A DNA stretch of 64,000 bases from an uncultured Prevotellaceae bacterium (GCA_900313615.1 OMRP01000016.1:7505-71504), one strand, 5' to 3'. Shown: positions 4,277 to 63,173, numbered from the stretch's first letter. Numbers and translations: made by a program. Notes: a model not told the origin generated them from the letters alone.

Positions 4277-4277
4277 A

Positions 4278-12001: not shown

Positions 12002-12135
12002 TGAAAGAGTTAGTGTTAATGGATTTTATAATTTGCAAGAATTTTCGGATAATTTGATAGTCGACTATATAATTTGCAAGAAAAATTTGCAAATTATAAA
12101 AAAGATTGTTATTTTTGCATCAAAATTATGAAATT

Positions 12136-47742: not shown

Positions 47743-47933
47743 ACTTCGAAGGAAGCGTTTGATAAGCGCTATCCATTTGAACAGATATCGTAAATAACTG
47801 CATCTTTCCATAATTGGAAGGGTGCAGTTTGTTGTTATATTCTGCCATCGTTCGAAACTATAATCAAAATCATGCTATTTGGGTATTGCCAGACTAGGAA
47901 AAGATGTGTATCTTTGTCAGCAAAAATGAAGAG

Positions 47934-48713: not shown

Positions 48714-48775
48714 TACAACCATCAGTCAATTCAACAAACGATTTGGGTTCAGGTGGTATTCGAATCACAAGACGA

Positions 48776-49078
48776 TTACAGCCATCTGTCAAGGGCATGC
48801 CAGCCGCCACCTTTAGACGGAATCATTAGAAAAATAATAACCGCAACAATAAAGGCAGGGAAAAAAACTTTGACGCTGGCTTCTACGTGGCCTGCTTTGA
48901 ACAGTCGCACTACAGAAATCCATAGAGCAATGTCAAGGCACAGCACAACGAAATCCTGTTCGGACTGAATGGGGAGGCACGCGGCATCATATACCGTTGT
49001 TCGAACTATACGGGGATATACAAGACATAGAGCCACCTGGCGAATTCGCGGATAGGTAACTCCGGCCCGCGATAGCAA
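48776..49078 (-). CDS. Possible small membrane protein (cassette 1)
   Basis: Two hydrophobic segments; start uncertain. Confidence 0.3.
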   Translation of the reverse strand: MLSRAGVTYPRIRQVALCLVYPRIVRTTVYDAACLPIQSEQDFVVLCLDIALWISVVRLFKAGHVEASVKVFFPAFIVAVIIFLMIPSKGGGWHALDRWL

Positions 49079-49253
49079 AAAAGACCCAGAGCCGTGTCGT
49101 GTGGCTTTTACACATCACACCTTGTCAAGAAGAGCCTTATTTTGCCCATAACCTTTAAAAGGTATTAAAAACATTACTTTTGTTTGCGGTTTATTTGGTA
49201 GGTGGTATTATTTTTATTACCTTTGTATCGTCAAGTAATAAAACATCGCAGCT

Positions 49254-49448
49254 ATGAAAAGATACAAAGTTAAAGAGATTATCAAACTTCTTGAAAGCGA
49301 TGGATGGTATCTCTCTGCGACAAAAGGAGACCACAGACAGTTCAAGCACCCGAAGAAGCCAGGGAAAGTGACGGTGAGGGGAAAAGACAGTGAGGTCTTG
49401 AATCAGTTCTTACTGAACAGCATCTGGAAACAAGCGGGGTGGAAATGA
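49254..49448 (+). CDS. hicA: HicA toxin (cassette 1)
   Basis: LESDGWY...KGDHRQFKHP.KPGKVTV. Confidence 0.9.
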   Translation: MKRYKVKEIIKLLESDGWYLSATKGDHRQFKHPKKPGKVTVRGKDSEVLNQFLLNSIWKQAGWK

Positions 49449-49501
49449 CCAGCCTTGCTTATCGACAACAACAAACCAAAACAAAAGACAAAAATACAAC
49501 A

Positions 49502-49915
49502 ATGGAAAAAATCAGAGTAGACGTACAATGGTGCGACAAGAATTTCGGAGCCTCTCTTGGCGAGAATGTGCCCGGTGCCGTAGTGGTAACCGCAAAGACA
49601 TACGAACAATTGCTCAACGATGTGCCTGAATCTCTTCGTTTCCATGTGGAGGGCATGCTTGCCGATGGCGACGACGTGCCCCAGTGGTTGCGCAACGGGG
49701 ACTATGAGCTGGAATACAACCTTGTTGACACAGCCACCATGCTCCATGCCTTTGAGCCTCTTTTGTCGCTTGCCGCCATTAGCAGGGTCACCGGTATCAA
49801 CCAGCATCAGCTATCCCACTACGCCAACGGATTGAAGCAGCCCCGCCCGCAGCAACGGCAGCGCATCGTGGACGGCATCCACAAGATTGGTCGTGAACTA
49901 TTGGCTGTTGTATAA
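49502..49915 (+). CDS. hicB: HicB-like antitoxin with C-terminal HTH (cassette 1)
   Basis: Follows hicA; HVEGMLADGDDVP, TGINQHQLSHYANG. Confidence 0.82.
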   Translation: MEKIRVDVQWCDKNFGASLGENVPGAVVVTAKTYEQLLNDVPESLRFHVEGMLADGDDVPQWLRNGDYELEYNLVDTATMLHAFEPLLSLAAISRVTGINQHQLSHYANGLKQPRPQQRQRIVDGIHKIGRELLAVV

Positions 49916-50161
49916 GTTTTATTGTTTGACGACATTGCTTAGCGTCAGCTTGGCGGGGCATCACTGTCCCGGTCTTTTTCTTACTATCGTTTTCCTTTAT
50001 TGTCCAGCCACCGCAGGAACCAAATGAAGAGACCGACGACAACAATGGTGACAGCCACGTCGACGGCGCGTTTTCACTGCTCCTAAAACGAAGGCTACTT
50101 GACCGCTTCTTTTGTTCAATTTGTCGTTTAAAACGGTTTGGGTTCAGGTGGTAATCGAACC

Positions 50162-50407
50162 TCAATCGCCGCCGTCAGAACTTTCATAGGGGTTATAGTA
50201 AAAACCACCACCCTCAATTACTCCATTATGGCAATATTTCCATACCCACCACTGGATGGGAAATGTAATGATAGGAAGTAAAGCAAAGCTCAGGAGTGTA
50301 AACAGGAAACCACGGAACCAGGTCCTCGGCCACCAACCTCCACAGTAAAAGAGGAAAAGCGCAACCGACACACCTACTATCCATAATATAGTCCAAAGAG
50401 TTTCCAT
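50162..50407 (-). CDS. Small two-TM protein, METLW family copy A (cassette 2)
   Basis: 81 aa; stop codon abuts the repeat. Confidence 0.8.
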   Translation of the reverse strand: METLWTILWIVGVSVALFLFYCGGWWPRTWFRGFLFTLLSFALLPIITFPIQWWVWKYCHNGVIEGGGFYYNPYESSDGGD

Positions 50408-50441
50408 GATTATTAGTTTAATAGAATCTGTCCTAATAGCA

Positions 50442-50678
50442 TCATGGGGCATCACAATAAGCCGAACTTTCACCGAGTCCTTCATCTAACCATCCACCAT
50501 TGCAAAACTTCCATATAACGTATTGGATGGGAAAGGTAACTATAGGAAGGAAAGCGAAACTCAATAGCGTAAAAAGAAATCCACGGAACCACGTCCTCGG
50601 CCACCAACCTCCGCAGTAGAAAAGAATCAGTGCAATAGTTACACCTACAATCCATAATATAGTCCAAAGAGTTTCCAT
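50442..50678 (-). CDS. Small two-TM protein, METLW family copy B (cassette 2)
   Basis: 78 aa; upstream TTTG-N20-TATTTTTG promoter. Confidence 0.8.
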   Translation of the reverse strand: METLWTILWIVGVTIALILFYCGGWWPRTWFRGFLFTLLSFAFLPIVTFPIQYVIWKFCNGGWLDEGLGESSAYCDAP

Positions 50679-50809
50679 AATCTCTATTTTAGGGATTTCT
50701 GCAACAAAAATAACATTATTATTATTATTTTCCAAATTAATTCACCTTTATTTTGGTCTTACGGTTTAAAACATTTTGGGTTCAGGTGGTATTCGAACCT
50801 CAATCTTCC

Positions 50810-51196
50810 ATGTCTCTCGAACTCTGCCAGCAGCACATACAGCGCGGCATACGCGACATCTTCAATGCACAGCTACAGATAGCCGAGCGGCGCATCTACG
50901 GATTCACGCGCCGGCCCGAACTCATCTCGCGCCGAACGAGGCACCTCCGGCGCGAACTCGCAGCTGCACGTCACTCCGTCAGTCATAGCGGGCAGGGGCT
51001 CACCGCCACCGCACAGGTGCCGCTCTACATCCGCTTCCTCGACATGAAGAAACACGGCAACCTCCAAATCTACAACCGGCAGATCTACGGCATACTCTAC
51101 CACCGGGTGCTCAACCGAATACGCTACGGCTACACCGACGAGATAGCACAACAAATAAGAAAAAGATTAATCGAAGCAGGAGCGGTACTAAGGTGA
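50810..51196 (+). CDS. Bacteroidetes prophage tail-region hypothetical protein (cassette 3)
   Basis: IRFLDMK...IYNR.IYGILY...IRYG motif; GC-rich. Confidence 0.6.
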   Translation: MSLELCQQHIQRGIRDIFNAQLQIAERRIYGFTRRPELISRRTRHLRRELAAARHSVSHSGQGLTATAQVPLYIRFLDMKKHGNLQIYNRQIYGILYHRVLNRIRYGYTDEIAQQIRKRLIEAGAVLR

Positions 51197-51200
51197 AAAG

Positions 51201-51437
51201 TCAGTCGTCACTACTGTAATCTGATCCTGGAAAAAGTTCGCCGTCTCCCCATCCGCCGCGATAAATCATCCAAATAACATATTGGATGGGCAATGTGATG
51301 ATGGGAGTGAATATGAGTGTCAACATAACAAAACAAAAACCACGCCACCATGTGCTGGGCCACCATCCTTTGCAATAGAAAAGGAAGAGAGCGACTGCTG
51401 TCACCAAACCGACTAATATAACCCAGAGAGTTTCCAT
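51201..51437 (-). CDS. METLW family copy C (cassette 3)
   Basis: 78 aa, FYCKGWWP.TW motif. Confidence 0.8.
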   Translation of the reverse strand: METLWVILVGLVTAVALFLFYCKGWWPSTWWRGFCFVMLTLIFTPIITLPIQYVIWMIYRGGWGDGELFPGSDYSSDD

Positions 51438-51448
51438 GGAAATAATTG

Positions 51449-51694
51449 CTAATTATAGGCGGCAGTACTTTCATAAGGGTCATAATGCCCACCGCTACCC
51501 TCTATTATACCGTTATGGCAATATTTCCAAACCCACCACTGGATGGGCAATGTGATGATGGGAGTGAATATGAGTGTCAACATAACAAAACAAAAACCAC
51601 GCCACCATGTTCTTGGCCACCATCCTTTGCAATAGAAAAGGAAGAGAGCGACTGCTGTCACCAAACCGACTAATATAACCCAGAGCGTTTCCAT
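51449..51694 (-). CDS. METLW family copy D (cassette 3)
   Basis: 81 aa; 5' ~155 bp nearly identical to copy C. Confidence 0.8.
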   Translation of the reverse strand: METLWVILVGLVTAVALFLFYCKGWWPRTWWRGFCFVMLTLIFTPIITLPIQWWVWKYCHNGIIEGSGGHYDPYESTAAYN

Positions 51695-51828
51695 AACGAC
51701 TTTTGTTTCTTGATGCAAAAATAAACGACGCATAATGCTTTTACAAGGGTTTTTCCCTATTGTTAAGGGGGAAAACCCCAAATTTATGTTAAGTTTAAAA
51801 CGGTTTGGGTTCAGGTGGTATTCGAACC

Positions 51829-52075
51829 AGAGGTTGGAAAGGGATTCGCTGAGCCCGGCAATATATTTTTTCTGCTCCCCGATATGTCTCTTCATGTCGT
51901 CGATGTTCTTCTGCATACTCCTGCCGGCTTCCGCATCACCTTTTTTCTTCGAGTTTAGGAGACGTTTCTGGGAGTCTTCGAGAGTTTTCAGCTCACTCTC
52001 GAGTTTTTTTAGTTCGTTCTGTGCGTTTTTGCTGTTTACGTCGATGACGGCTCTGAATACTTCTTCGTGTCCCAT
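51829..52075 (-). pseudogene. 5' fragment of a probable tape-measure protein, cut by a repeat (cassette 4)
   Basis: IDVNSKNAQNELKKLE coiled coil runs into repeat 4. Confidence 0.55.
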
Positions 52076-52141
52076 AATAATAGGTGGTATGTTTGCTTCT
52101 CTTGCAAATATACCACCTATATCTTTGGAGCGAAAATACCA

Positions 52142-52423
52142 CTAAGCCGGATTCCTCGACTCCTCGTATGTTTGTTGCACGATATCCTCCAGTTCTCTCT
52201 TCGACTTAGCCCTTAATGTGGTAATTTTATTTATAGAAGACAGCCAAAGGACGGCACAATATTCATTATTCTTGAAATCAACATACGCACTAACTACCTT
52301 ATTCTCGCTACCGAGATCATACATGTTCCTTAGCCTGATTTTGGCCTCAGGTCTATCCTTTTTTTGTCTTCCCATCAGCCAGACAATTATCCAGGATGTT
52401 ATTAAAAGTGCGAGAAATTCCAT
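52142..52423 (-). CDS. Small membrane-anchored protein (cassette 4)
   Basis: 93 aa with an N-terminal TM segment. Confidence 0.65.
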   Translation of the reverse strand: MEFLALLITSWIIVWLMGRQKKDRPEAKIRLRNMYDLGSENKVVSAYVDFKNNEYCAVLWLSSINKITTLRAKSKRELEDIVQQTYEESRNPA

Positions 52424-52491
52424 ATATAGTATGTTTAGTGTTCGTTGTAAAAACCCCCTATACTCCCGCACCGGGGGCTGAAGAGTTCTAT

Positions 52492-52935
52492 CTAAAATGA
52501 TTTATTAAGACGCTGCACGGTAGGTTGCTCTAAAGGCAGACCGTGAGCCAAATCACTTGCAAACTTATTGATACCTTCGCGTATCTTCTTGACCTGGGCC
52601 TCGTGAGGTACTCGCAATGACGCGATATATTGTCGAAGCACAGAAGCGTTCATGCCGATGTATTTTGCGAATGCTGTCACATCGATTGGGTAATAGTCAA
52701 AAAACGAACCTATGTCAAGCCTGAAGTCAAATTGTACTTCAGGGAATCTACGTCCCTCTTCTTCCTCCATTTCTTTGTATTCTTTTACAGTGACAATGAT
52801 GTCATCCATCGCTTCGCGGGCGGTCTTGCCATAGCCGGCCAGGCCACACTTACCGACAGGATCGGGAGAAAAGCATGAGAAATTACCTTTTCCTTTTCCG
52901 CGTTCAACGTAAACAATTCTCTTAACGGTTCCCAT
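52492..52935 (-). CDS. hicB: Orphan HicB-like antitoxin (cassette 4)
   Basis: GYGKTAREAMDD, FAKYIGMNASVLRQY HTH. Confidence 0.78.
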   Translation of the reverse strand: MGTVKRIVYVERGKGKGNFSCFSPDPVGKCGLAGYGKTAREAMDDIIVTVKEYKEMEEEEGRRFPEVQFDFRLDIGSFFDYYPIDVTAFAKYIGMNASVLRQYIASLRVPHEAQVKKIREGINKFASDLAHGLPLEQPTVQRLNKSF

Positions 52936-53019
52936 ATATAATGAGTTATAAATATTATCAAAGTAAAGAGTCCTATTATTAATTAGCAAAGTAATTCGGC
53001 ATGGAAAAAGTTGTGGGGG

Positions 53020-53061
53020 TTATTCCCCCAACAACTTTTTTAAGATTTCTCGGAGAGTACC
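53020..53061 (-). pseudogene. Last 13 codons of a hicA-like gene, cut by repeat 5
   Basis: Translates to GTLREILKKLLGE*, upstream of hicB. Confidence 0.6.
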
Positions 53062-53157
53062 GTTTAAAACGGTTTGGGTTCAGGTGGTATTCGAACCGGA
53101 ATTGCTCCAATTCTTTGGACACCTTCAGTTTACTTTGTCTCTCCATCGCCACACCAT

Positions 53158-53343
53158 TTAAAAGCCCATAGCATCCATCATCGCATCGTATTCCATAGGA
53201 TTACTTGGCATGTCACCATACATGCCGTCAGTCAGCGCATCCCAGGAATCCTCTTCTGTCCATTCGTAGCCACCTTCATTGTAGCTTTCGCACTCGTAAT
53301 CATCGTACTCTTCATAAGAGTCATCATAATAATCTCTTGCCAT
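53158..53343 (-). CDS. Very acidic 61-aa protein (cassette 5)
   Basis: D/E/Y-rich with a single basic residue; only gene in a 301-bp cassette. Confidence 0.75.
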   Translation of the reverse strand: MARDYYDDSYEEYDDYECESYNEGGYEWTEEDSWDALTDGMYGDMPSNPMEYDAMMDAMGF

Positions 53344-53562
53344 AATCTTTTGTTTTTAATCGTTATTACTCTTATTTCTTTACCAAAACACTCTGGGCGT
53401 TTAAAACGGTTTGGGTTCAGGTGGTATTCGAACCCAAAAGTACTTTTTTTCTGAATTATTGATTAAAATGGTTATGTTAATATAGTATTTTAACCTCAAT
53501 GCCTGTCGGTGTCTTAGTTGTGGTTTTATTGAATACGCGATGTTGCATATCTTATATCTTTG

Positions 53563-54168
53563 CTATGTGATATAAAGCATTCGGTATTTCAATCGCGCAC
53601 TATGACACTTTGGGCAGTACAGCGGGTCATCATTTCCTTTTAGTATGTCTTCCTCCTTATTTCTGATTATTGAGCCACATTTTGGACAGACGAAATCTTT
53701 ATCAGACTCTCCAAACGTATGATATTGTTTACTCTCGTTGTGTTCTATAACGAATGCATGGCAGTTAGGGCATTGCCTGCCAATATCACATGACACCGCA
53801 CCATGAACGAAACTTATAATATCCTCATGGTAACCACAGTCGCAACATTCAATCTTTCCCGCGCCACCCATTTGGGAAAAACAGAGATAATGTTCATCCG
53901 GTTTCAAACCCAATTTCTTTTTCAACATAATTTCCTCTTTATCTTTTTTCTTTTCTTCTCTTGTTTTCTTGTATTTGCTAACTGCTACATTAATTAAAAT
54001 TACAGGTAGGAACACGGTTGCGAAGGGTGCCGTAATCAGAAGAGTCAACCACTGCTTAAACGTTGTTTTCTCTGAATCCTTGTTCTTCTTGTTATTATAG
54101 ACCCGAATGCTGATGGTTAAAACAAGACTTATAAACCAATAGATGAGTACATAATGAATCCAATTCAT
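53563..54168 (-). CDS. Two-TM protein with four CxxC zinc-ribbon motifs (cassette 6)
   Basis: CCDC, CPNC, CPKC, CPKC; own TATATTTG promoter. Confidence 0.75.
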   Translation of the reverse strand: MNWIHYVLIYWFISLVLTISIRVYNNKKNKDSEKTTFKQWLTLLITAPFATVFLPVILINVAVSKYKKTREEKKKDKEEIMLKKKLGLKPDEHYLCFSQMGGAGKIECCDCGYHEDIISFVHGAVSCDIGRQCPNCHAFVIEHNESKQYHTFGESDKDFVCPKCGSIIRNKEEDILKGNDDPLYCPKCHSARLKYRMLYIT

Positions 54169-54292
54169 AGTTTTCCCTTCTGTATTGTTTAAGATTAAAA
54201 TGGTTCTGTTACTTATAGAAACTTTGCAAATATAAACATAATAATCGACACAAACAAAATAAATGGGCAAAAGCCTAAAATATGGCACGGAT

Positions 54293-54583
54293 TTATAAAA
54301 ACACTTCCATACCATTGAGGTTATCATAGACCAGCCCGGAGCCGTAGCAGACCTCCGCATTGAAGAGCTGGCACGTCGAAAGTGTCTCGTCGCTTTCTAT
54401 GAGGTCGAGGACACGGAAAGGCAGATTGTTGTCGCCTCCCCACGGCATATAGGCGAGGTTTTTGTCAACGATGAAGGGAGCGGTGTCCTCCGATTCACGG
54501 AAGACTTCGGAGGAGTTGACCGTAAAAGCAGCACTTGCTTTGAGGTCGGGGATGAGTTCTACGCTGTTAAAAGAAAAATCCAT
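54293..54583 (-). pseudogene. N-terminal fragment of a phage portal protein (cassette 6)
   Basis: PWGGDNNLP...DETLSTCQLFNAEVCYGSGL; ends after ~90 aa. Confidence 0.65.
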
Positions 54584-54649
54584 AACTTTGTTTTTGATGC
54601 AAAGTTATGGATTGGTATGTGATGGGGAAAAGACAATAACTATAGACTA

Positions 54650-55099
54650 TTAGTCATTGTCGATGTTCTTTAACATGAAAAGGCACCTTCCTTTTCTATA
54701 GTCTTTAGGTGACAATCTCTTTTTACAATCAAACGCATTTTTATAATCGACAACGTCCCATTCCCATGCTTCCTGCATGATATATTTTTTATCGTATAAA
54801 ATCCATATAAGTTTATCCCACTCATAGTTGGTTGCTTTAGGAGCCATTGTCACGAAGCTACCAGGCTTTCCACTGGGACGATTGGCTTTTACTTGGTATC
54901 TTATGCCATTGAAGACAAAATCAGCCCCCTTGCTAACAGCGGTTTTGTCTTGCATATATTCAGAATATTGGTCTTCAGACATTCCTATGAGCATTGCAGC
55001 ATCATACTCTGAAAGAGAACTGGTAATCGATGGTGATACTCCAAATTTACTTTGCCATGCTAAAGCAATTTCAACAAGATTATCTCTAAGCATATACAT
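54650..55099 (-). CDS. PD-(D/E)XK-like nuclease-fold protein (cassette 6)
   Basis: SEYDAA...GADF...YQVK. Confidence 0.55.
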   Translation of the reverse strand: MYMLRDNLVEIALAWQSKFGVSPSITSSLSEYDAAMLIGMSEDQYSEYMQDKTAVSKGADFVFNGIRYQVKANRPSGKPGSFVTMAPKATNYEWDKLIWILYDKKYIMQEAWEWDVVDYKNAFDCKKRLSPKDYRKGRCLFMLKNIDND

Positions 55100-55225
55100 T
55101 ATTTTTAAGTTTAAAACGGTTTGGGTTCAGGTGGTATTCGAACCGACGAGTATTTTTATCTTAAAAGTTACGGGATTTGGCATGTCGTGTCCTTTTTTTT
55201 TATTATATTTGCAAAAAAAACAAGA

Positions 55226-55501
55226 ATGAAGTTAAAGAAACGAGGTAAGAAACTCTTCGCCTACCTTTTAGTGGCACTGCTCTCTTTTCCGGTGGCATTG
55301 ATTTCATGGTGCTCATCTTGGTATGATGTATGTACCGTAAGTCTCATTATTTTCGTTTTTTCTGTAGTCAAAAGTATCTGTATATATTTGGCCAACTTTT
55401 ACGACAAATACGGGCTTTTGAGCAGGCAAGGGCCAGACACACTGTTCGAATACGAGCCGGGCGACAAAGAGTATGAAGAAGAGAAGAAATGGCAGCGATA
55501 G
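55226..55501 (+). CDS. Small two-TM protein (cassette 7)
   Basis: 91 aa, own promoter; TAG stop is completed by the first G of repeat 8. Confidence 0.75.
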   Translation: MKLKKRGKKLFAYLLVALLSFPVALISWCSSWYDVCTVSLIIFVFSVVKSICIYLANFYDKYGLLSRQGPDTLFEYEPGDKEYEEEKKWQR

Positions 55502-55579
55502 TTTAAAACGGTTTGGGTTCAGGTGGTATTCGAACCCTGAATTTTTTTGGAGATTAAAAAAATTTGTTTATCGTTTGCA

Positions 55580-55653
55580 ACGAGGATTCCGTAGCTAATG
55601 ACTACCGATTCTTCGCCAGAATGAGGAATGAGCAATCATTCCTCAAACTTTTT
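55580..55653 (+). ncRNA. Candidate sRNA, two hairpins (cassette 8)
   Basis: Stem with 7-nt CUAAUGA loop; perfect 10-bp tgaggaatga-gcaa-tcattcctca hairpin plus U-tract. Confidence 0.5.
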
Positions 55654-55725
55654 ATAGAACACAAATGATATGGTGGAGTTGAATTTCGTTCATTTTGTTG
55701 TATTTTTGCAGTAAAAAAATCAGTT

Positions 55726-56160
55726 ATGACTATTATATCCAACTCCGAAGACAGCAAAACAACATTTCTCGAGCTAATAAATCAGAGAAGAGCTTTGAAC
55801 AACGAACTGTCAGTTGTGCTTCGCCATTACACAGGCATATCGTCCACTCTACTTGCTCTATTGGCTGTGTTTGGTGATATAGCTTCGTTTTCCCTTCCAG
55901 TAAGGATTCTGATTTCAGCGAGTATGACGTGTTTACTTTCATCTGTTCTGTCGGGAGTGTGGTGCTGTATGGCAGTTTATCTAACACGCGAAAGAGCCAT
56001 GGGAAGAGTTCTCGAACAGCTGAGGACGAAAGCCGGAAATGCTCAAGGGTCAGTATCTCCCCCTTTCGGATTCTCCTTTTTTGTGCGATTCTGCCCCACC
56101 ATGTTGTGCTTGGGCGTTCTATTCTTATGGCTGAGCGCCATGTTTTTGTTGTTTTTTTAA
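55726..56160 (+). CDS. Three-TM membrane protein (cassette 8)
   Basis: 144 aa, hydrophobic segments, TATTTTTG -7 element. Confidence 0.7.
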   Translation: MTIISNSEDSKTTFLELINQRRALNNELSVVLRHYTGISSTLLALLAVFGDIASFSLPVRILISASMTCLLSSVLSGVWCCMAVYLTRERAMGRVLEQLRTKAGNAQGSVSPPFGFSFFVRFCPTMLCLGVLFLWLSAMFLLFF

Positions 56161-56223
56161 TGCTTTCTTCCATTTTTTTTGTGTTTTTTATTTGGAAGTT
56201 AAAATATTTTGTTTATCTTTGCA

Positions 56224-56290
56224 GTTGGAATAGCATCAGGGTTGAGCCTTGGATTGTAACTCCAGGTAGTTCTTCCTTTTTGCTATTTCT
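56224..56290 (+). ncRNA. Candidate sRNA with a tRNA-anticodon-like hairpin, convergent on the MuF gene end (cassette 8)
   Basis: TTTG-N19-TATCTTTG promoter; CTTGGA-TTGTAAC-TCCAGG; closing gaatagca/tgctattt stem. Confidence 0.5.
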
Positions 56291-56954
56291 TTTTTATGTA
56301 TTTCTTTATTTCTTCTGGATTGTCAGAAATGGAATGGAGGACGTATTCTCCCCAGTCCCACTCCCAAACAATTATACATTGTTCATCCCCTTTTACCTTA
56401 GTGGAGAAAATATGACTTTGCTTTAATTTTGGCTTTTGGTTATGAGGCGGAAGTGTCGATGGTCCCAGGTATTCACACTCTTTTTCTTCAAACACTTCAT
56501 TTATACGTAGTAGCATCTTGTTTTTTTCTTGATAGTGTTTGTTGGGTTGGTTGGTCCATTCTGTTATTGATGCTCTTGATATATTTATAGGATGGGGAAA
56601 TTTCGATGTGTTGATAGAAGTCCCCTGTAGTGGTTTGGCTTGTTTCCTTGTCTGCTTGGCATCAGCATTTGCTAATGATCTGACAATCCGGCATGCTGCA
56701 CACAGTTCATTCTCGGGCACGAAAGCGAGGTTGACTTTTCCCTGTGCGATGTCGCAGTCTCGGCAACGTCGTATGGTGTATGGGTTGTAGTCCGGAATAG
56801 TCTTCTGCTCTATGCCTGGATTGAAGTGGAAGATGCCCTTGTTGTCCTTTCCGGTTGCCGCCTCTCCGAGTGCCATTGCCTCGTCGTGCGGGGTCACGGG
56901 ATACTTTGACTTGCGGACCTGGACAACAGTGCATCGGCAGTTCCAGCCGTTTGG
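56283..56954 (-). pseudogene. 3' fragment of phage head morphogenesis protein (MuF) with C-terminal extension, cut by repeat 9
   Basis: Begins PNGWNCRCTVVQVRK directly at the repeat. Confidence 0.8.
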
Positions 56955-56990
56955 GTTTAAAACGGTTTGGGTTCAGGTGGTATTCGAACC

Positions 56991-57151
56991 GTGAGTATGG
57001 CCCTTCCCTGGTTCCTGACAGGCGACTTTCGTCGCTGCCAAGCCTGGGAGAAGAAGGCCTGACGTTCGAAGTTCCGGTCGAACTCGTCGGTGAGTTCTAC
57101 CTGAATGTCGCGGAGGATGTTTTTTATTATTTTCTGAATATTTTCGGGCAT
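56991..57151 (-). pseudogene. 5' fragment of phage virion morphogenesis protein (Mu gpG-like), cut by repeat 9 (cassette 9)
   Basis: DIQVELTDEFDRNFERQAFFSQAWQRRKS. Confidence 0.72.
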
Positions 57152-57188
57152 TTTGTTTGGAGGTTAGGGATTTCTTTGTATCTTTGCA

Positions 57189-57275
57189 GTGTCCTTAGTG
57201 ACTACCCGCTGAGTATGCGTGGGGATTGGGCTTTATCGTACCGTCCCATTTGGCTGTCTTCGGATAGCCTTTTTT
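57189..57275 (+). ncRNA. Candidate sRNA with promoter and terminator (cassette 9)
   Basis: TTTG(57156)-N19-TATCTTTG(57179); ggctgtc-ttcg-gatagcc-T6 terminator; no ORF inside. Confidence 0.55.
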
Positions 57276-57425
57276 ATTGTTCGATACGTTTTCTGAACTC
57301 CTTGTAGAACGTTCTCTTCATAACAAAGTTCCTTTCCACAGACACCATCTTTTTCCCAACTGCTACCAGCACTTCCAGTGCCTCGTTGTTAGCCTCGAAG
57401 TATTGTTTGATTTCTGTGGCCATTC
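57274..57425 (-). pseudogene. 3' end of an upstream phage gene (probably a MuF extension), cut by repeat 10
   Basis: 49-aa tail MATEIKQYF...FRKRIEQ*; upstream of the virion morphogenesis gene. Confidence 0.45.
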
Positions 57426-57483
57426 GTTTAAAACGGTTTGGGTTCAGGTGGTATTCGAACCATTAAAAATGAAATAAGTCATT

Positions 57484-57729
57484 TTAATCGCTACTACTAT
57501 AAAACGCAGCACTCTTTTGTGTGTTGCCATCTCCATCTCCCCATCCACCATGGTAAATCATCCATATAACATACTGAATAGGGAAAGTGATAATCGGAGT
57601 AAACAGACAAGTCAATATGATAAACAAAAAACCACGAAACCATGTACTGGGCCACCATCCTTTACAATAAAAAAGGAAGAGAGCCACCGTCAGCACAACC
57701 CCAACCAATATTGTCCAAAGCGTTTCCAT
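57484..57729 (-). CDS. METLW family copy E (cassette 10)
   Basis: 81 aa; upstream promoter region homologous to cassette 2. Confidence 0.8.
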   Translation of the reverse strand: METLWTILVGVVLTVALFLFYCKGWWPSTWFRGFLFIILTCLFTPIITFPIQYVIWMIYHGGWGDGDGNTQKSAAFYSSSD

Positions 57730-57860
57730 GATTTCTGATTGAAATAACTTCACCACAAAAATAATATTAATAATAATATTTTCCAAATTAATTCACCTTT
57801 ATTGTTTAAAACGGTTTGGGTTCAGGTGGTATTCGAACCTATCGGCATTGCGAACAATTC

Positions 57861-57940
57861 AGGTTGCCTGATTCATAGTTTGGGAACACGCTTTTTATAG
57901 TTGTTTCGGTGGCAGTAGGTTAACCGATTCATAGTTTAGG
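57861..57940 (+). repeat. Iteron-like direct repeats upstream of rep
   Basis: aggttgcctgattcatagtttggg / aggttaaccgattcatagtttagg (20/24 identical, 56-bp period). Confidence 0.5.
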
Positions 57941-57970
57941 CAATTATTATATGTATATACATACGTGCGT

Positions 57971-59239
57971 ATGGAGAAGAAACAAGGAATATCGAAAGAG
58001 GAAATGCGCCAGTTGGTGGAGTCGCATTCGTGGATCAAGTCGCCGTTCGCCTACACCAAACTGGGTGCCAACCTCTCGCTGGTGCAGCAGCAGTCGCTCC
58101 TCATGGTCAGCGACCATCTGCAGACGTATATCAAGGACTTCTACAACCTAAAACTGGATAAGTCGAAGAAGCGCCCCAAGTCGCTGTTCACGGAGCACCT
58201 TTTGAAGAACGGAATACCTCCGTTCCGCATCTATCTGGCCGACCTCGGTGTGCAGGCGGGCAACTACCGCGACGTGCGCAAGGCCATCAACGAAATGGCG
58301 GTGATGGTGGAGCACCCAGTGCTCGACGATGACGGCATCCCCACGGGTGAGACGGCCTTTAACCCGGTCTTCGAGGAGTTCAGGGTGAAAGAGACTGGCG
58401 ACTACTACCACTACGAGCGCGAGAATGAGGAGGGGCTGATGGAAATGGCGGAGTCGGTGCGGCACTATGGCTACATCGACGTGCAGATCAACCCGAAGGT
58501 GGCCGAGTGGGCTTTTGATATGTCGGCGGGATATGTGAACCATTTGAAACTGATAGCGCGTTATAGTACAAAGCGCCCCACGCCGCGCCTCTATCTCATG
58601 CTGATGCGGGCGATAGGGCAGGGGAAGAAACGGGTGCGCTACACGCTTCAGGAATTAAAGGAATACCTCGGTATCGTGCCCTACGTCAACGAGAAGGGCG
58701 AGACAGTGACACCTTACCCCAAGTTCGCCCACTTCCGCATCAAGGTGCTCGACGCGGTGCGCGACGACCTCGACCGCATGGCGAAACTCAACCAGACGGA
58801 CATCCGATTTGAGTATGATCTGATTTATCCCGGCAGCCGTAAGCGTGGCGAACCTGAATATATTGAGTTCAAGATTGAGCGCACTCAGTTGGGCGATGCG
58901 TATAATGTTATCGTCAATCACCAGCCGTCTGAGATAAAGCAGCAACCCCGTCAACAAGAACTTTTTATGGAAGAGTATAAAGAGAAGTTTAAACAGTGCT
59001 TGGCAGAAATGGCTGAAAAGGTTGAAGATGACAGTGTAAAAGCGAAATTGAAAATGATGCAGTTTGAGCATTTCGACACAACCAAGAAGGTGCTTTACAT
59101 TCAACTGCCCGACTCCGACTATTACCAATGGATAGAGAGCGACAACGTAATCCGATTCGTATGGGGACATCTTTCCAAGCATTTCGGGAAAAGCATCCAG
59201 CTCCAATATAGGCTGTTGAAAAATTCACCGAAACCGTGA
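57971..59239 (+). CDS. Rep_3/RepB-like replication initiator (cassette 11)
   Basis: RLYLML, TLQELKEYLGI, YPKFAHFRIKVLD winged-helix pattern. Confidence 0.8.
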   Translation: MEKKQGISKEEMRQLVESHSWIKSPFAYTKLGANLSLVQQQSLLMVSDHLQTYIKDFYNLKLDKSKKRPKSLFTEHLLKNGIPPFRIYLADLGVQAGNYRDVRKAINEMAVMVEHPVLDDDGIPTGETAFNPVFEEFRVKETGDYYHYERENEEGLMEMAESVRHYGYIDVQINPKVAEWAFDMSAGYVNHLKLIARYSTKRPTPRLYLMLMRAIGQGKKRVRYTLQELKEYLGIVPYVNEKGETVTPYPKFAHFRIKVLDAVRDDLDRMAKLNQTDIRFEYDLIYPGSRKRGEPEYIEFKIERTQLGDAYNVIVNHQPSEIKQQPRQQELFMEEYKEKFKQCLAEMAEKVEDDSVKAKLKMMQFEHFDTTKKVLYIQLPDSDYYQWIESDNVIRFVWGHLSKHFGKSIQLQYRLLKNSPKP

Positions 59240-59312
59240 CAACCTGTACCAAATGTTAAAATCGAAAAGGGTATATTTGCATCGTAAACGAATATATCCT
59301 TTTTGATTTTTT

Positions 59313-59594
59313 ATGAGCGAGGAAAACGAAAAGAAATCTCCGACCCTTGATGATTTCATCATCACCGAGAAGGTGGATGCCTTCTGCAAGCAGTATCGCC
59401 CGGTCAAGGAACACACCTTCGCTACCGAGGCTTTCAACGAAGAGCGGCTGCGTGAGTTCTTCAAGGCTTACGAACTGTTCTCGCAGGGCGACCCTTTGAA
59501 GGTGTATATCGACGAGCTGGCCGCACGCGACTATCACATGTCCGTATCGGTATATGGCGAGCCAGCTATTATAGTGGAGGAAAAATTCGACTGA
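59313..59594 (+). CDS. Phage hypothetical protein (cassette 11)
   Basis: 93-aa ORF with TATATTTG promoter. Confidence 0.65.
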   Translation: MSEENEKKSPTLDDFIITEKVDAFCKQYRPVKEHTFATEAFNEERLREFFKAYELFSQGDPLKVYIDELAARDYHMSVSVYGEPAIIVEEKFD

Positions 59595-59628
59595 CATCTA
59601 TCAAACCAATCAAAATAATTGTATCAGC

Positions 59629-60456
59629 ATGGCAAAATATTATTATGAGTTTCCTTTCGACAGCAAGGAGGGCAGGGCACTGGCAAAGTTCCACCACGCC
59701 TGCGTCAACGCCGAGCGCATGGCGGAGAAGTATGCGAAAGGTATGGGGGCGGTGTCTTATTATACAAGCCCGCATTACTTCACCGGCGGCGTGGAATACT
59801 TGGTCTTCGCAGATCCCAAGAAGGTGAACACCGACATCTGGAGGCTGGCCAACAAGACTAAAGACGGCGAACAATGGTGGGAACCTAATGTGGAGAAAGT
59901 GGCGGGGTGCGTGAAGGCGCGTGAGAATTTCACGCCATCAGACGTGGCCGGGCGCACTTATTCCAAACGTCCCAGCACATGGGACGAGGTGCGCAGGACG
60001 TACACTCTGGACGAATGGCTGGCTTTCATAGGATTCAAGACATCCGGCGACAAGGAGATAGACAGCAAGGCCATAGTGGGCTTGTTGGGCGACAAGCAAT
60101 TCTACAAGTACATCGACATCATCCCGAATGCCGCTCCCGTGGCGGGCAGGAAACGAAGTCGTGACGGGTCTAAAGCCGTGACCGCCGAGCAGGAGCGGAT
60201 GAAACTGCCGGTCGTCAGGACAGAAGACTTTTACCAGATAGTTCATGCCCACAACGTAGCCGCCGAAAACGAAAAAGAAGGAAAGCCCCTGAAGGTGGAT
60301 GAGAGCACGCCTGTGTTTTTCGCCCATGCTGGGAAGTGGAACATCGGGCTTGACCGTCTAATAGACTGCGGGGATTATGACGGCTTCGCGGAAATCACCG
60401 CAGGGATGTTCACGGCAAGGAAAAACTTCATGCTGCGAGAATTGAATAGGAAATAG
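59629..60456 (+). CDS. Phage hypothetical protein (cassette 11)
   Basis: 275-aa ORF. Confidence 0.65.
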   Translation: MAKYYYEFPFDSKEGRALAKFHHACVNAERMAEKYAKGMGAVSYYTSPHYFTGGVEYLVFADPKKVNTDIWRLANKTKDGEQWWEPNVEKVAGCVKARENFTPSDVAGRTYSKRPSTWDEVRRTYTLDEWLAFIGFKTSGDKEIDSKAIVGLLGDKQFYKYIDIIPNAAPVAGRKRSRDGSKAVTAEQERMKLPVVRTEDFYQIVHAHNVAAENEKEGKPLKVDESTPVFFAHAGKWNIGLDRLIDCGDYDGFAEITAGMFTARKNFMLRELNRK

Positions 60457-60475
60457 AAAACGGCAATTCTCCCAA

Positions 60476-61126
60476 TTACCGTTTGTTGGGGTTTACGTGT
60501 GGGCGCGGAGCGTCTCCGTAATCTGCCACACCTTCGGGGCTGTAACCGCTATAGGAAGACTGGCGCCCGCCTTGCGTGAGTGCCAGTCTTATTGTTTGCA
60601 TCCCGTCGCTCACCATGTCCTTGTATTCGTCTATCCGAGCTTCATATTGGCTGATGCGCTCTTCGTATTGCCGGCGCATATCATCTTCACGCTCCTGATA
60701 TTCTCTTCTAAGCTGTGCCTCTTTCTTCAGCTGCTCGTCTTTTATCCGTTGAATCTCCTGCATGTGGTCAATTTTCATTTGCAGGATTTCCATCTGCGAT
60801 GTATTATCTTTCTCGTTCTTTTCATTTTTCGTCGCTTCGCTTTGCAGCCGTTCATCCCCTCGCACTGAGGCGCGATGTGCCGTTTTTGGAATGACTGTCG
60901 CCGGACTGTCGCCGTCAAGAAAGAACTCCGAAAGGTCTATGTCATAAAGATTGCAGAGCAGCACCATTTTTTCTACTGGCAGAGGATTGGTCTTGTCCTT
61001 CATCCATCGTTTCAGGCTCACATTATTCACCTCCAGGTCTTTCATAAGTTGGGTGAGTTTTAGCCCCGACTTCTCGAACCACTGTCCAAAGAAATCGGCG
61101 TTGTACGAATACTTTTTCATAATCAT
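60476..61126 (-). CDS. XRE/CI-like HTH repressor with coiled-coil C-terminus (cassette 11)
   Basis: LTQLMKDLEVNNVSLKRWM...LLCNLYDIDLSEFF; divergent overlapping promoters upstream. Confidence 0.72.
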   Translation of the reverse strand: MIMKKYSYNADFFGQWFEKSGLKLTQLMKDLEVNNVSLKRWMKDKTNPLPVEKMVLLCNLYDIDLSEFFLDGDSPATVIPKTAHRASVRGDERLQSEATKNEKNEKDNTSQMEILQMKIDHMQEIQRIKDEQLKKEAQLRREYQEREDDMRRQYEERISQYEARIDEYKDMVSDGMQTIRLALTQGGRQSSYSGYSPEGVADYGDAPRPHVNPNKR

Positions 61127-61251
61127 TCTGGTTTATGTTTGACAAATGCTTTTCTTAAAAAATGTTTATCTAATCAAAATAAATAATCATTATAGATTGA
61201 TATTTATTTTAGTTTCGTACTTTTGCAACAAAGTTACAAAATATCAATGAA

Positions 61252-61322
61252 ATGACAAAAGAAGTATTTTTGAAATTGCACGCCCCTGGCGGTCATCTTG
61301 AAGCAAAAGACCTGACCGCCGA
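61252..61322 (+). pseudogene. Start of the divergent early gene, cut by repeat 12
   Basis: MTKEVFLKLHAPGGHLEAKDLTA runs into the repeat. Confidence 0.5.
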
Positions 61323-61358
61323 GTTTAAAACGGTTTGGGTTCAGGTGGTATTCGAACC

Positions 61359-61476
61359 CTTTAATTGGTAATTTTTTGAGGCAAAGATAGTTGTAATTTT
61401 TATAATTACAAAAAAATGAAAGAAATAATGAGCAATTTATATTATTCCTTCATTTTTTTAGTAATTTAGCCGAAAA
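61359..61476 (-). promoter_or_regulatory. Array leader with a promoter facing into the array
   Basis: AT-rich; minus-strand TTTG(61412-61409)-N19-TATCTTTG(61389-61382); palindrome TTGTAATT-N5-AATTACAA. Confidence 0.78.
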
Positions 61477-62334
61477 ATGGCAAAGCAAACTTTAGTATTC
61501 GAATCATCAAAAGAACTATCCTTAAGAGATGGTATGTTGGTCATTACCAACAGGGAGACTGAAGAGACGACATTGCGCTCGTTGGAGGACATCCAGATGA
61601 TCATGGTGGATAATCATTCCGTCAAGATAACGATTCCTCTCATCGCTAAATTATCGAAATTAAATATCGGTGTTGTGTTCTGCGACGAGAAACATATGCC
61701 TGTGTCGATGTTGTTGGATTTGGAATCTAATACCTTGCAGTCGAAAAGGATAAGATGTCAGTTGGCTGCATCAAAACCAGTCAATAAACAAATATGGAAA
61801 CAAATTGTAGAGGCTAAAATCCGTAACCAGTCTTTATTGCTTGAGAAATTGGGCATTGGCAAATCATTGCTTGCCACCTACTACAACAATGTCAAAAGTG
61901 GCGATTCCACCAATCGGGAAGGGATGGCTGCAAGAGTGTATTGGTTGAAACTCATTGGAAAGAACTTTATTCGTGATAGGTTTGGAGGACCTCCGAATGC
62001 TCTCCTTAATTACGGCTATACCGTGCTCCGTTCTATGGTGGCCAGAAGTCTCATGAATGCAGGACTGCTTCCTCTCGTGGGAATCTTCCATCATAATTGT
62101 CACAATGCTTTTCCTTTGGCCGATGATGTTATGGAACCATATAGACCTTATGTTGACTATCGGGTAATAATAATGCTGAAAGAAGGACTGACGGAAGTGT
62201 GCAGAGAATCGAAGAGACGGCTATTGGAATTATTTTATCAAGATATTTCTGCTGACGCAATGTCATTGACGGCTTCTTCACTGGCTGGTATTTATGAAGA
62301 AGATGGTAGAGTTATTGTTTATCCAACGATTTGA
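61477..62334 (+). CDS. cas1: CRISPR-associated integrase Cas1 (type II-like)
   Basis: FCDEKHMP, KIRNQ, SGDSTNREG, NALLNYGY, GIFHH, LADDVMEPYRP. Confidence 0.95.
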   Translation: MAKQTLVFESSKELSLRDGMLVITNRETEETTLRSLEDIQMIMVDNHSVKITIPLIAKLSKLNIGVVFCDEKHMPVSMLLDLESNTLQSKRIRCQLAASKPVNKQIWKQIVEAKIRNQSLLLEKLGIGKSLLATYYNNVKSGDSTNREGMAARVYWLKLIGKNFIRDRFGGPPNALLNYGYTVLRSMVARSLMNAGLLPLVGIFHHNCHNAFPLADDVMEPYRPYVDYRVIIMLKEGLTEVCRESKRRLLELFYQDISADAMSLTASSLAGIYEEDGRVIVYPTI

Positions 62335-62338
62335 AAAT

Positions 62339-62653
62339 ATGTGGATCTATGTTGTTACAAGTTTCACCCGCTATAACAAGGTGGGACGAAAAGCAAAGGA
62401 TGTTTTTCAAAAGTCAATAGTTAAAGATGGATTCTTCCAACTACATGAGAATCTGTATGTCAGGTATTGCAGCACGGTAGGTAATGCTAATATGCATAAA
62501 GAACGAGTAAAGAACGTCATACCGATAAAGTGTTGCGATGTGAGCATTATTATGACCGCTGATAGTCAGGAAAGCAATATCTATCACAGCCTTAATAGGA
62601 AAAGGTCAAAATGTATTGTTTATGGAAAACATGGCAATGTGGAATTCTTCTAG
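62339..62653 (+). CDS. cas2: Divergent Cas2 (type II-like)
   Basis: Follows cas1; KDGF.QL...YVRYC...A..H.ERVK..IP; usual FD(L)P motif replaced by TSFT. Confidence 0.82.
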   Translation: MWIYVVTSFTRYNKVGRKAKDVFQKSIVKDGFFQLHENLYVRYCSTVGNANMHKERVKNVIPIKCCDVSIIMTADSQESNIYHSLNRKRSKCIVYGKHGNVEFF

Positions 62654-62732: not shown

Positions 62733-63173
62733 TTACACCGGAATCTTGTCGATGCGACGCTGGTGGCGACCACCTTCGAAGTCGGTGGCGAAATATTCGT
62801 CCATAATCTTGCGAGCCATGTCTTCATCGATGAAACGACCAGGCATGACGAGCACATTGGCATCGTTGTGCTGACGGATGAGATGGGCAATCTCGGGAAT
62901 CCAGCACAGGCCGGCGCGAATGGATTGGTGTTTGTTGAGGGTCATGTTGATGCCTTCGCCGCTACCACAGACAGCGATGCCGGGATAGACCTCGCCAGCT
63001 TCGATGCCGCGTGCCAAGGCATGGCCGAAGTCGCTGTAGTCGCACGAGTCCTCCGTGTAGGTGCCATAGTCCTTGTAAGCGTAACCTTTTTCTTCCAGGT
63101 ATTGCTTGACGAATTGTTTCAAAGCATAGCCAGCATGGTCGCTGGCTATGCCTATGGTTTTGAATTCCATCAT
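62733..63173 (-). CDS. rpiB: Ribose-5-phosphate isomerase B
   Basis: ASDHAG, CGSGEG, HNDANVL, FEGGRHQRRI. Confidence 0.95.
   Translation of the reverse strand: MMEFKTIGIASDHAGYALKQFVKQYLEEKGYAYKDYGTYTEDSCDYSDFGHALARGIEAGEVYPGIAVCGSGEGINMTLNKHQSIRAGLCWIPEIAHLIRQHNDANVLVMPGRFIDEDMARKIMDEYFATDFEGGRHQRRIDKIPV

Follow-up and report, generated by a model that had tools for sequence, protein, structure and literature searches.

Can a CRISPR adaptation module that has lost its effector store DNA on the scale of whole genes rather than short spacers? The question is raised by a locus in a rumen Prevotella (GCA_900313615.1 OMRP01000016.1:7505-71504; herein the window, meaning the whole 64,000-nt stretch of DNA that was analyzed), in which a CRISPR-style repeat array lies next to cas1-cas2, with no Cas9 found, and in which the "spacers" are 0.3-3.5 kb pieces of phage and plasmid DNA. 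A preliminary description of this locus, made from sequence alone, had proposed that its integrase inserts kilobase phage fragments and thereby builds an integron-like library of expressed genes. We find that the observation on which this proposal rests is confirmed, whereas the proposal itself is only partly supported. For the most recent insert we identified the exact 3,483-base donor in a phage-like contig, which suggests a CRISPR offshoot that writes gene-sized DNA into the genome. We found no published description of such a family in the library searched.

Anatomy of the array

A search of the window for the 36-bp repeat returned 11 copies with at most three mismatches (none expected by chance), and a degenerate 12th copy was recovered at the far end (table 1). 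All of the copies are on the + strand, their start-to-start spacings give the 11 insert lengths originally described, and the repeat occurs nowhere else in the 2.77-Mb genome. The array abuts a leader followed by cas1 and cas2, and the locus is bounded by genes for a ZIP transporter and RpiB. Cas1 scores 276 bits against the type II profile cas1_NMENI (cut-off 120) and matches PADLOC Cas1_II at E 1.4e-98, and Cas2 matches PADLOC Cas2_II at E 2e-12, with an alignment of relatives placing its true start at M16. A profile search for Cas9 (TIGR01865) returned no match in this genome or in genome G401, whereas the same search finds Cas9 in three control genomes of the genus; however, the genome is a metagenome-assembled genome that is 81.6% complete, and a distant cas9 cannot be fully excluded. 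There is no tracrRNA-like anti-repeat (no reverse-strand match to the repeat anywhere in the window when allowing up to 11 of 36 substitutions, or to 20-mers with up to three), no Rfam hit, and no other CRISPR-like array in the genome.

Table 1. Coordinates of features at the locus, counted from the first base of the window. Promoters are sequence-pattern predictions; L and a number designate contigs or loci compared with the window.
Coordinates	Strand	Feature	Supporting observations
47904-48713		ZIP transporter gene	Bounds the locus
48731-48766	+	R1, degenerate trailer-end repeat	7 mismatches
48767-50125		S1 (1359 bp): 274 bp of unknown origin, then hicA (49254-49448, +) and a hicB-like gene (49504-49915, +) with their own promoter (49194-49225)	Pfam HicA_toxin 4.9e-18; bases 49041-50162 are 99.5% identical in Prevotella sp. 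RGIG7570, where the flanks are only 81-89% identical
50126-50161	+	R2	1 mismatch
50162-50763	-	S2 (602 bp): two whole paralogous small membrane-protein genes	Promoter pattern at 50705-50736 (-)
50764-50799	+	R3	2 mismatches
50800-51792		S3 (993 bp): a 131-codon open frame entering from the left edge (+), then two more membrane-protein paralogs (-)	
51793-51828	+	R4	Consensus
51829-53061	-	S4 (1233 bp): a 109-aa ORF, a HicB-like 165-aa ORF (52492-52989), and a 13-codon hicA-like 3' remnant cut by R5	The translation GTLREILKKLLGE (then stop) starts at the repeat edge; the 165-aa ORF shares a C-terminal region with the S1 HicB-like protein (E 6e-6)
53062-53097	+	R5	
53098-53398		S5 (301 bp): open across its full length in one + frame; also a 61-codon - strand ORF	A homolog in a same-genus genome reads through the left cut point
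53399-53434	+	R6	
53435-55108	-	S6 (1674 bp): three ORFs (265, 96 and 149 aa), no clear family	The 149-aa gene has homologs at 72-75% identity in several same-genus genomes
55109-55144	+	R7	
55145-55500	+	S7 (356 bp): an internal gene fragment, open in one frame end to end	82% identical to G435:C4 (L040 9103-9457); that source reads on past both cut points
55501-55536	+	R8	
55537-56954	-	S8 (1418 bp): the C-terminal part of a Mu F-like/LPD3 head-morphogenesis gene, 5'-truncated at R9, plus a 146-aa ORF	From residue 1 matches phrog_23416 at profile positions 165-271 of 459; 93-99% identical to the Mu-like prophage in L040; five source homologs read through the cut
56955-56990	+	R9	
56991-57425	-	S9 (435 bp): the first 54 codons of a Mu gpG-like virion-morphogenesis gene, 3'-truncated at R9, plus an upstream ORF start	
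57426-57461	+	R10	
57462-57803	-	S10 (342 bp): one whole small membrane-protein gene with its own promoter	
57804-57839	+	R11	
57840-61322		S11 (3483 bp, leader-proximal and newest): a Rep3-like initiator (57965-59239, +), 93-aa and 275-aa ORFs (+), an HTH regulator (60476-61126, -), and the first ~24 codons of a donor 152-aa gene	Matches phage-like contig L053 96-3578; the Rep3 assignment is an Atlas lead only; HTH: phrog_2967
61323-61358	+	R12, leader-proximal repeat	
61359-61476		118-bp leader	In five relatives a conserved GCAAAGATAG-type motif lies exactly 22 nt from the repeat
61382-61412	-	Bacteroidetes-type promoter (TTTG, 19 nt, TAnnTTTG) pointing into the array	Conserved in L028 and L032; the pattern occurs 13 times in the window against 1.2 expected
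61477-62334	+	cas1, type II, 285 aa	Glu/His/acidic active-site motifs present
62339-62653	+	cas2, 104 aa, from M16 of the ORF that starts at 62294	Beta-1 Asp replaced (VVTSFT); C-terminal VEFF invariant in the clade
62733-63173		rpiB	Bounds the locus

The contiguity of the array holds. At least ten contigs from different samples, studies and assemblers (several at k=141, longer than repeat plus spacer) carry the same repeat-insert junctions at 99.5-100% identity, for up to nine repeats and inside contigs of 300-540 kb with chromosomal flanks. The locus type found in RGIG7570 is likewise reproduced on 24 contigs.

Origin of the inserts and polarity of the array

An exact donor was found for S11, in which all of the 3,483 bases from the first base after R11 to the last base before R12 match a phage-like contig from another sample (L053) at 99.97% identity, with one mismatch. 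The donor reads on at both ends, holds no repeat-like sequence, and shows no microhomology at either junction. This is the only donor known at near identity; however, flush cuts through genes, at which source homologs read on, are also seen at the right edge of S4, the left edge of S5, both edges of S7, the right edge of S8, and both edges of S9 (at the left edge of S8 the start of homology is only defined to within a few bases), and the sources include a Mu-like prophage. The cuts ignore gene boundaries and truncate hicA, a Mu F-like gene, a gpG-like gene and the donor 152-aa gene, such that an integron-like library of expressed genes is not supported as it was stated. Some whole small genes with their own promoters are nonetheless present (hicAB, five small membrane proteins, an HTH regulator), so expression of retained cargo remains possible.

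The preliminary description had expected shared trailer-end and variable leader-end cassettes in related genomes, and polar growth from the leader is supported. R1, R2 and R3 carry private mutations while R4-R12 are identical, the newest cassette has the most similar donor, and the window and RGIG7570 share only the trailer-most cassette. Strains with 99% identical flanks differ at the leader-proximal cassette (L020/L021 against the window, L027 against L028, and L065 against L064). Other processes also shape these arrays, however: S1 has a breakpoint at 49041 with no repeat, S8 is a mosaic of two prophage variants, and a leader copy lies inside the array of L031. Strains of the RGIG7570 type also differ by one leader-proximal cassette although cas1-cas2 is deleted in all of them, so repeat-to-repeat deletion can also create leader-end differences.

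A Cas1 clade with a Cas9-less layout

The layout is a trait of a whole Cas1 clade found in rumen and gut Bacteroidales. Cas1 relatives at 76, 71, 64 and 54% identity each have their own 34-36-bp repeat, no cas9-sized gene within 10 kb, and spacers of 187-5,223 bp, and none of about 36 spacers is short. Two further relatives at 55-56% identity show one repeat after cas2, followed by different sequence of more than 75-140 nt. Only cas1-cas2 and the leader are common to all of these loci, which have unrelated flanks, and the leader promoter motif holds its spacing from the repeat in five of them. Cas1 and cas2 are intact and under strong purifying selection (dN/dS about 0.06 against the 76%-identical relative, with saturated synonymous sites), and the Cas1 catalytic motifs align with those of SpyCas1 (PDB 4ZKJ).

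In contrast, the nearest other Cas1 proteins in 80 genomes of the genus (43-50% identity) lie in canonical type II-C cas9-cas1-cas2 loci with array periods of 65-66 or 77 bp. The window shares with these sister loci (L047-L049) a type II Cas1 and Cas2, repeats of 34-36 bp starting with GTTT, an A/T-rich leader beside the first repeat, identical repeats with a decayed terminal copy, and foreign DNA stored between the repeats. Its 12 repeats, nine of them identical and beside a leader, also fall within the 23-50 bp of direct repeats in a canonical array. It differs in the absence of a detected Cas9 and of a tracrRNA or anti-repeat, and in spacers of 0.19-5.2 kb instead of 29-30 bp, well outside the roughly 26-50 bp and uniform length of a canonical array. 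Additionally, the array lies upstream of cas1 in the closest subclade, the Cas2 beta-1 Asp is replaced in the relatives at 57% Cas2 identity or more, and Cas1 is about 10 residues shorter.

Other known systems offer partial parallels. In Sulfolobus islandicus LAL14/1, the SiL-E1 "pseudo-spacer" comprises about 2 kb of conjugative-plasmid DNA, carrying five ORFs, flush between two perfect repeats (Open Biol 2013, PMC3718332), but it is a single insert in an otherwise normal type I/III array of an archaeon that has effectors. Large phage DNA within a type II CRISPR array of Streptococcus pyogenes is reported as prophage integration (bioRxiv 10.1101/2020.10.09.333658); here the inserts are internal phage fragments, the donor has no repeat-like site, and no integrase lies nearby. 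A casposon, which pairs Cas1 with a family B polymerase between terminal inverted repeats, does not fit either, as the locus holds only cas1-cas2 between ZIP and rpiB, the repeats are direct, and no polymerase-sized ORF is present (judged by ORF size rather than by a polymerase profile).

How the array may be built and used

We hypothesize that this is a Cas9-less descendant of a type II-C adaptation module whose Cas1-Cas2 most likely inserts long double-stranded DNA fragments, about 0.2 to 5 kb, at the leader-proximal repeat, a reading to which we assign a probability of roughly 0.55. In this view, the fragments would come from invading phages, prophages and plasmid-like elements and be cut without regard to genes; each insertion would duplicate the 36-bp repeat, as in ordinary spacer acquisition but without the ~30-bp ruler; the array would grow from the leader while old repeats decay at the far end; and the conserved leader promoter would transcribe the array, with several captured small genes bringing their own promoters. 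Our analysis establishes the anatomy, the exact donor and flush junctions of the newest insert, the polarity, the recurrence across a Cas1 clade and the selection on cas1 and cas2, whereas repeat duplication, catalysis of both joins by Cas1-Cas2 and any use of the array are inferred, the catalysis only from the intact motifs, the purifying selection and the exclusive co-occurrence with the arrays. Structures of type II-A Cas1-Cas2 show a fixed ruler for ~30-bp prespacers, so long inserts would need a different geometry that has not been shown.

The alternative that survives best, although we consider it unlikely, is that another enzyme or repair route builds the array, be it an unlinked repeat-specific recombinase or host end-joining of stray DNA into breaks or nicks at the repeats, with cas1-cas2 as a bystander or only a supplier of nicks. 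Nothing directly ties Cas1-Cas2 catalysis to the joins, and the leader-end differences among strains lacking cas1-cas2, the mosaic cassettes and the repeat-less breakpoint show that other recombination acts here. However, only cas1-cas2 and the leader are shared by six loci with unrelated flanks, each Cas1 subclade has its own repeat, the junctions are exact to the base at both repeat edges, the nearest tyrosine recombinase (PF00589) is 45 kb away, and cas1 and cas2 remain under strong purifying selection in the absence of cas9.

A less likely route is homologous recombination between an invading element and two pre-existing short spacers that match it, which would replace part of a normal array with the intervening DNA and give inserts flush with the repeats. 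This is one of two routes proposed for SiL-E1, a single case (PMC3718332). It requires normal short spacers, yet none of about 36 spacers in six related loci is shorter than about 187 bp; it would need to have occurred 11 times out of 11 here; and without Cas9 nothing selects for matching spacers.

An integron-like array, with repeats acting as attC-type sites for a tyrosine recombinase and cassettes moving as circles, is very doubtful. Sedentary chromosomal integrons do resemble the locus in their co-oriented repeats separating gene-sized units, TA modules and small orphan genes, and in a promoter at the growing end that reads into the array, and the hicAB cassette is 99.5% identical in another species. 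However, no IntI-type integrase is called in or near any of the loci, the repeats are 36 bp rather than imperfect palindromes of about 60-140 bp and share no conserved hairpin (fold z-scores of -1.2 to +0.8 in most relatives), the S11 donor has no repeat-like site, and the units are arbitrary fragments with truncated genes. Least likely is an assembly artefact in which assemblers walked from a normal short-spacer array into co-sequenced phage DNA, because, although the genome is a short-read assembly and a phage almost identical to S11 exists in related samples, the independent contigs described above reproduce the junctions and no ~66-bp periodicity appears anywhere.

If the array has a use, it may protect against related elements through captured repressors, antitoxins or exclusion proteins, or through long transcripts. 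It is possible, although at present improbable, that the locus represents a selected, working system, a Cas9-less type II-C derivative whose Cas1-Cas2 has lost its ruler and writes 0.2-5 kb pieces of invading phage and plasmid DNA next to a conserved promoter, giving heritable protection through the captured cargo itself or through long transcripts. In effect, this would be adaptive immunity by gene capture rather than by guide RNAs, and a natural kilobase-scale DNA writer.

The repeat array and its contiguity

The 36-bp repeat occurs 11 times in the window with at most 3 mismatches, where none is expected by chance, and a twelfth, degenerate copy was also found, with all copies lying on the + strand. 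The observation made in the preliminary description therefore stands, including the exact lengths that it gave for the inserts. The repeat is found nowhere else in the 2.77-Mb, 33-contig genome (81.6% complete). Searches with the repeat core returned no hits in JGI metagenome contigs or IMG/VR, none in 400 genomes of the family, and one other genome in the species collection (Prevotella sp. RGIG7570). A 118-bp leader lies downstream of the last repeat and is followed by cas1 (type II cas1_NMENI, 276 bits against a cut-off of 120) and cas2 (PADLOC Cas2_II, 2e-12), whose true start was placed at M16 by alignment with relatives; a ZIP transporter gene and rpiB bound the locus. No Cas9 profile match was found in this genome or in the one other genome that has the repeat, whereas the same search recovered Cas9 in three control genomes of the genus. 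Searches likewise returned no anti-repeat, no Rfam family, and no other CRISPR-like array.

The identical Cas1 protein is recorded on more than 22 contigs, of which ten, from several studies and assemblers, were retrieved. These carry the same repeat-insert junctions at 99.5-100% identity, some of them inside contigs of 300-540 kb.

Coordinates of features discussed in the text (L-numbers are retrieved contigs or loci; L014 is Prevotella sp. RGIG7570, JAFYZT010000055.1)
Sequence	Position	Strand	Feature
Window	48731	+	Twelfth, degenerate repeat copy (R1)
Window	49041		First base of the hicAB unit shared with RGIG7570 (CGAATTCGCGG)
Window	50162-51709 and 57484-57786		Five whole paralogs of a ~78-aa two-helix membrane protein
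Window	57840-61322		S11, leader-proximal insert, from the first base after R11 to the last base before R12
Window	60476-61126	-	HTH regulator gene of the newest cassette (S11)
Window	61229-61259	-	Consensus promoter of the HTH regulator gene
Window	61382-61412		Leader copy of the Bacteroidetes-type promoter pattern, pointing into the array
Window	62339-62653		cas2, from M16
L014	8779-9268		Trailer end of the RGIG7570 array
L014	9260		First base of the shared hicAB unit in RGIG7570
L031 (71%-identical relative)	318-431, 6519-6609 and 433-508, 2277-2352, 6610-6685		Copy of cas1 nt 37-150, copy of repeat plus leader, and 76-bp palindromic MITE-like elements
L040 (same-genus genome)	G435:C4 82-88 kb		Mu-like prophage region
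L046 (54%-identical relative)	8828-12134		Array whose repeats each contain TAnnTTTG on the reverse strand
L065 (RGIG7570-type contig)	4941-5284		Extra 344-bp leader-proximal cassette with a whole ~64-aa ORF

Origin and polarity of the inserts

The decisive result concerns the leader-proximal insert, S11. An identical-protein search with its 275-aa ORF recovered a 9.7-kb phage-like contig from another sample that carries an exonuclease, a DnaC-like loader, DUF3310, an HTH regulator and a Rep3-like initiator (the Rep3 assignment being only an Atlas lead). Every base of S11 aligns to this contig, at 99.97% identity with one mismatch and no gap. The donor reads on at both ends, shares no microhomology with the repeat and contains nothing resembling it, and one of its genes (152 aa) is cut by the right junction. 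Comparable look-ups for S10, S6 and cassette X of RGIG7570 returned only array contexts and no donors.

Older inserts tell the same story at lower identity. Indeed, S7, S8 and S9 all have homologs within about 6 kb of a Mu-like prophage in a same-genus genome, which carries Portal_Mu, Mu F-like with LPD3, and a gpG-like gene; the Mu-like prophage region of L040 has duplicated or rearranged Mu F / gpG modules, and homologs occur in one to three copies in many genomes of the genus. S8 starts, at the repeat edge, at position 165 of a 459-position phage family profile, S9 holds only the first 54 codons of the gpG-like gene, S4 ends in a 13-codon hicA-like remnant, and S5 and S7 are open end to end in one frame. 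At the left edge of S5, both edges of S7, the right edge of S8 and both edges of S9 the source sequences run on past the cut points, although at the left edge of S8 the start of homology is defined only to within a few bases. A DNA search of the array against GenBank phages gave only three weak hits, two of which first showed homology stopping at repeat edges. No PAM-like motif is visible at eight donor or source cut sites. We also considered whether the 140 bp upstream of the repeat in L020 (a contig with 99% identical cas1-rpiB) overlapped the S9 cut site in a gpG-like gene; however, BLAST and translation do not support this, and the reading was withdrawn.

The inserts are thus arbitrary fragments of foreign DNA joined exactly to the repeats rather than tidy cassettes. 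Whole small genes are nevertheless present, namely hicAB with its own promoter, five paralogs (52-74% identical) of the membrane protein starting METLW, spread over three separate cassettes and some with their own promoter (the nearest Atlas cluster is a viral transmembrane protein, at lead-level score only), and the HTH regulator of the newest cassette. The last keeps its own consensus promoter and faces the leader, so it is probably expressed; any action as a phage repressor that gives immunity would be hypothetical. Searches against Pfam, NCBIfam, PHROGs and PADLOC left most cassette ORFs unnamed. A sigma-70 promoter scan is not informative for Bacteroidetes, and a Bacteroidetes-type pattern was used instead: seven of its 13 occurrences in the window lie inside the cassettes of the array, and an eighth is the leader promoter. 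The orientation of cassette genes relative to the leader promoter is mixed (about 7 cassettes sense, 2-3 antisense or mixed), which is not significant. No insert has a second copy in the host genome, so the inserts are not self-derived, and most are lower in G+C than the genome (34-49% against 48.7%).

The array is polar. R1, R2 and R3 carry 7, 1 and 2 private changes, whereas R4-R12 are identical. RGIG7570, the only other genome with this repeat, shares just the trailer-most hicAB insert, at 99.5% identity, while its flanks are 81-89% identical; it has a different insert next to the leader, and its cas1-cas2 has been deleted, leaving a 5' stub. The shared hicAB unit begins at the same base in both species, but the sequence to its left differs (274 bp of unknown origin in the window, an rpiB fragment in RGIG7570) and no repeat sits at the breakpoint. 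Contigs with 99% identical cas1-rpiB (L020 and L021) have a different sequence upstream of the leader-proximal repeat, and in a relative two contigs with the same Cas1 protein have entirely different arrays. Within the RGIG7570 type, one contig (L065) has an extra leader-proximal insert; however, because all contigs of that type lack cas1-cas2, this difference may be a repeat-to-repeat deletion, and we count it as a caveat.

At the trailer end in RGIG7570, a degenerate repeat is fused to an old cas1 5' fragment (about codons 6-50, 87% identity) and joins directly to the post-cas2 terminator and a 357-bp copy of the 3' end of rpiB, which is 94% identical to the real rpiB 2.7 kb downstream. A second, different cas1-cas2 deletion lies at the leader end, and the result looks like two successive decayed cas-rpiB junctions, or a Campbell-type insertion. 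The 3' part of the repeat (GTATTCGAA) also occurs in cas1 codons 6-9; it does not co-vary with the repeat in relatives and is hence a coincidence of this repeat, although it may have served as microhomology for the repeat::cas1 fusion in RGIG7570. In L031, a copy of cas1 nt 37-150 and a copy of repeat plus leader lie inside or beyond the array, each abutting a MITE-like element, with an ISL3 transposase fragment nearby.

Related loci and the leader

Cas1 relatives at 76, 71, 64 and 54% identity each sit beside their own 34-36-bp repeat, with spacers of about 220-1,395, 200-983, 187-5,223 and 451-1,237 bp and no cas9 within 10 kb. In the 54% relative the array follows cas2 and, because each of its repeats contains the promoter element, each unit could be transcribed from its own repeat, as is reported for type II-C arrays in Neisseria. 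Two relatives at 55-56% have one repeat after cas2, followed by differing sequence that runs to the contig end. Phage pieces occur in the related loci too, such as a tape-measure domain whose reading frame runs on across the repeat at the cassette's end. None of about 36 spacers is short, and the shortest, about 190 bp, is close to the persistence length of DNA, which we infer would fit a need to loop the fragment so that both ends reach one integrase.

Among 80 genomes of the genus, the next-nearest Cas1 proteins (43-50% identity) belong to ordinary cas9-cas1-cas2 loci with array periods of 65-66 or 77 bp. The long-spacer loci therefore look like a Cas9-less offshoot of type II-C, within which cas1 and cas2 are intact and strongly constrained (dN/dS is 0.06 for the closest pair, with synonymous sites saturated in the others). 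The Cas1 Glu/His/acidic motifs align with SpyCas1. Cas2 keeps an invariant C-terminal VEFF and, in the relatives at 57% identity or more, has lost the beta-1 Asp that the canonical neighbours have, a residue that is not known to be needed for integration in E. coli.

Five loci with otherwise different leaders share a GCAAAGATAG-type motif exactly 22 nt from the repeat, which reads TAnnTTTG on the opposite strand. In three of these (the window and the related loci L028 and L032), TTTG lies 19-20 nt upstream of it, which is the Bacteroidetes promoter consensus; the pattern is tenfold enriched in the window. The predicted start of the leader promoter lies near 61370 on the - strand.

Proposed integration of long DNA and its alternatives

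Exact junctions with a donor that has no repeat-like site rule out both site-specific and homologous recombination through the repeat. What remains is integration at the leader-proximal repeat with repeat duplication. The only genes that always accompany the arrays are cas1-cas2, and each Cas1 lineage has its own repeat; we consider Cas1-Cas2-dependent integration of long DNA the best reading, with a probability of about 0.55. The layout, the donor and its exact junctions are read directly from the sequences, whereas catalysis of the joins by Cas1-Cas2 and any use of the array are inferred. An unlinked enzyme or repair route is unlikely, but is the strongest of the alternatives. Recombination through pre-existing matching spacers is one of the two routes suggested for the single 2-kb SiL-E1 pseudo-spacer of Sulfolobus islandicus (PMC3718332); this would need ordinary spacers, of which this clade has none, and we regard it as improbable. 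An integron is very unlikely, as no integrase is nearby and the repeats do not form attC-like hairpins. An assembly walk from short spacers into phage DNA would not reproduce eleven junction pairs in this way and is very unlikely.

The interpretation in the preliminary description, of an integrase inserting kilobase phage fragments to build an integron-like library of expressed genes, is only partly supported, since random cutting argues against a designed gene library. However, selection on cas1-cas2, the conserved promoter, and the retention of whole regulator, antitoxin and membrane-protein genes leave room for a protective role. The locus works like CRISPR adaptation, but the Cas9 and tracrRNA of a type II system were not found, and it lacks the spacer length of a canonical array. 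Full-text searches of the literature found, in the library searched, only single-insert precedents and no description of such a family.

If the inserts prove to be by-products of a decaying system, the clade still shows that cas1-cas2 can persist under selection for a long time without an effector, which needs an explanation. If Cas1-Cas2 of this clade really integrates kilobase DNA at a defined site, a question made directly testable by having the integrase genes, the leader-repeat target and a base-exact 3.5-kb donor with its phage context in hand, then the accepted picture of CRISPR adaptation as a strictly ruler-limited process needs revision. It would offer a compact two-protein, homology-independent writer of gene-sized DNA, and it would reveal a route by which gut and rumen Bacteroidales take up phage and plasmid genes.
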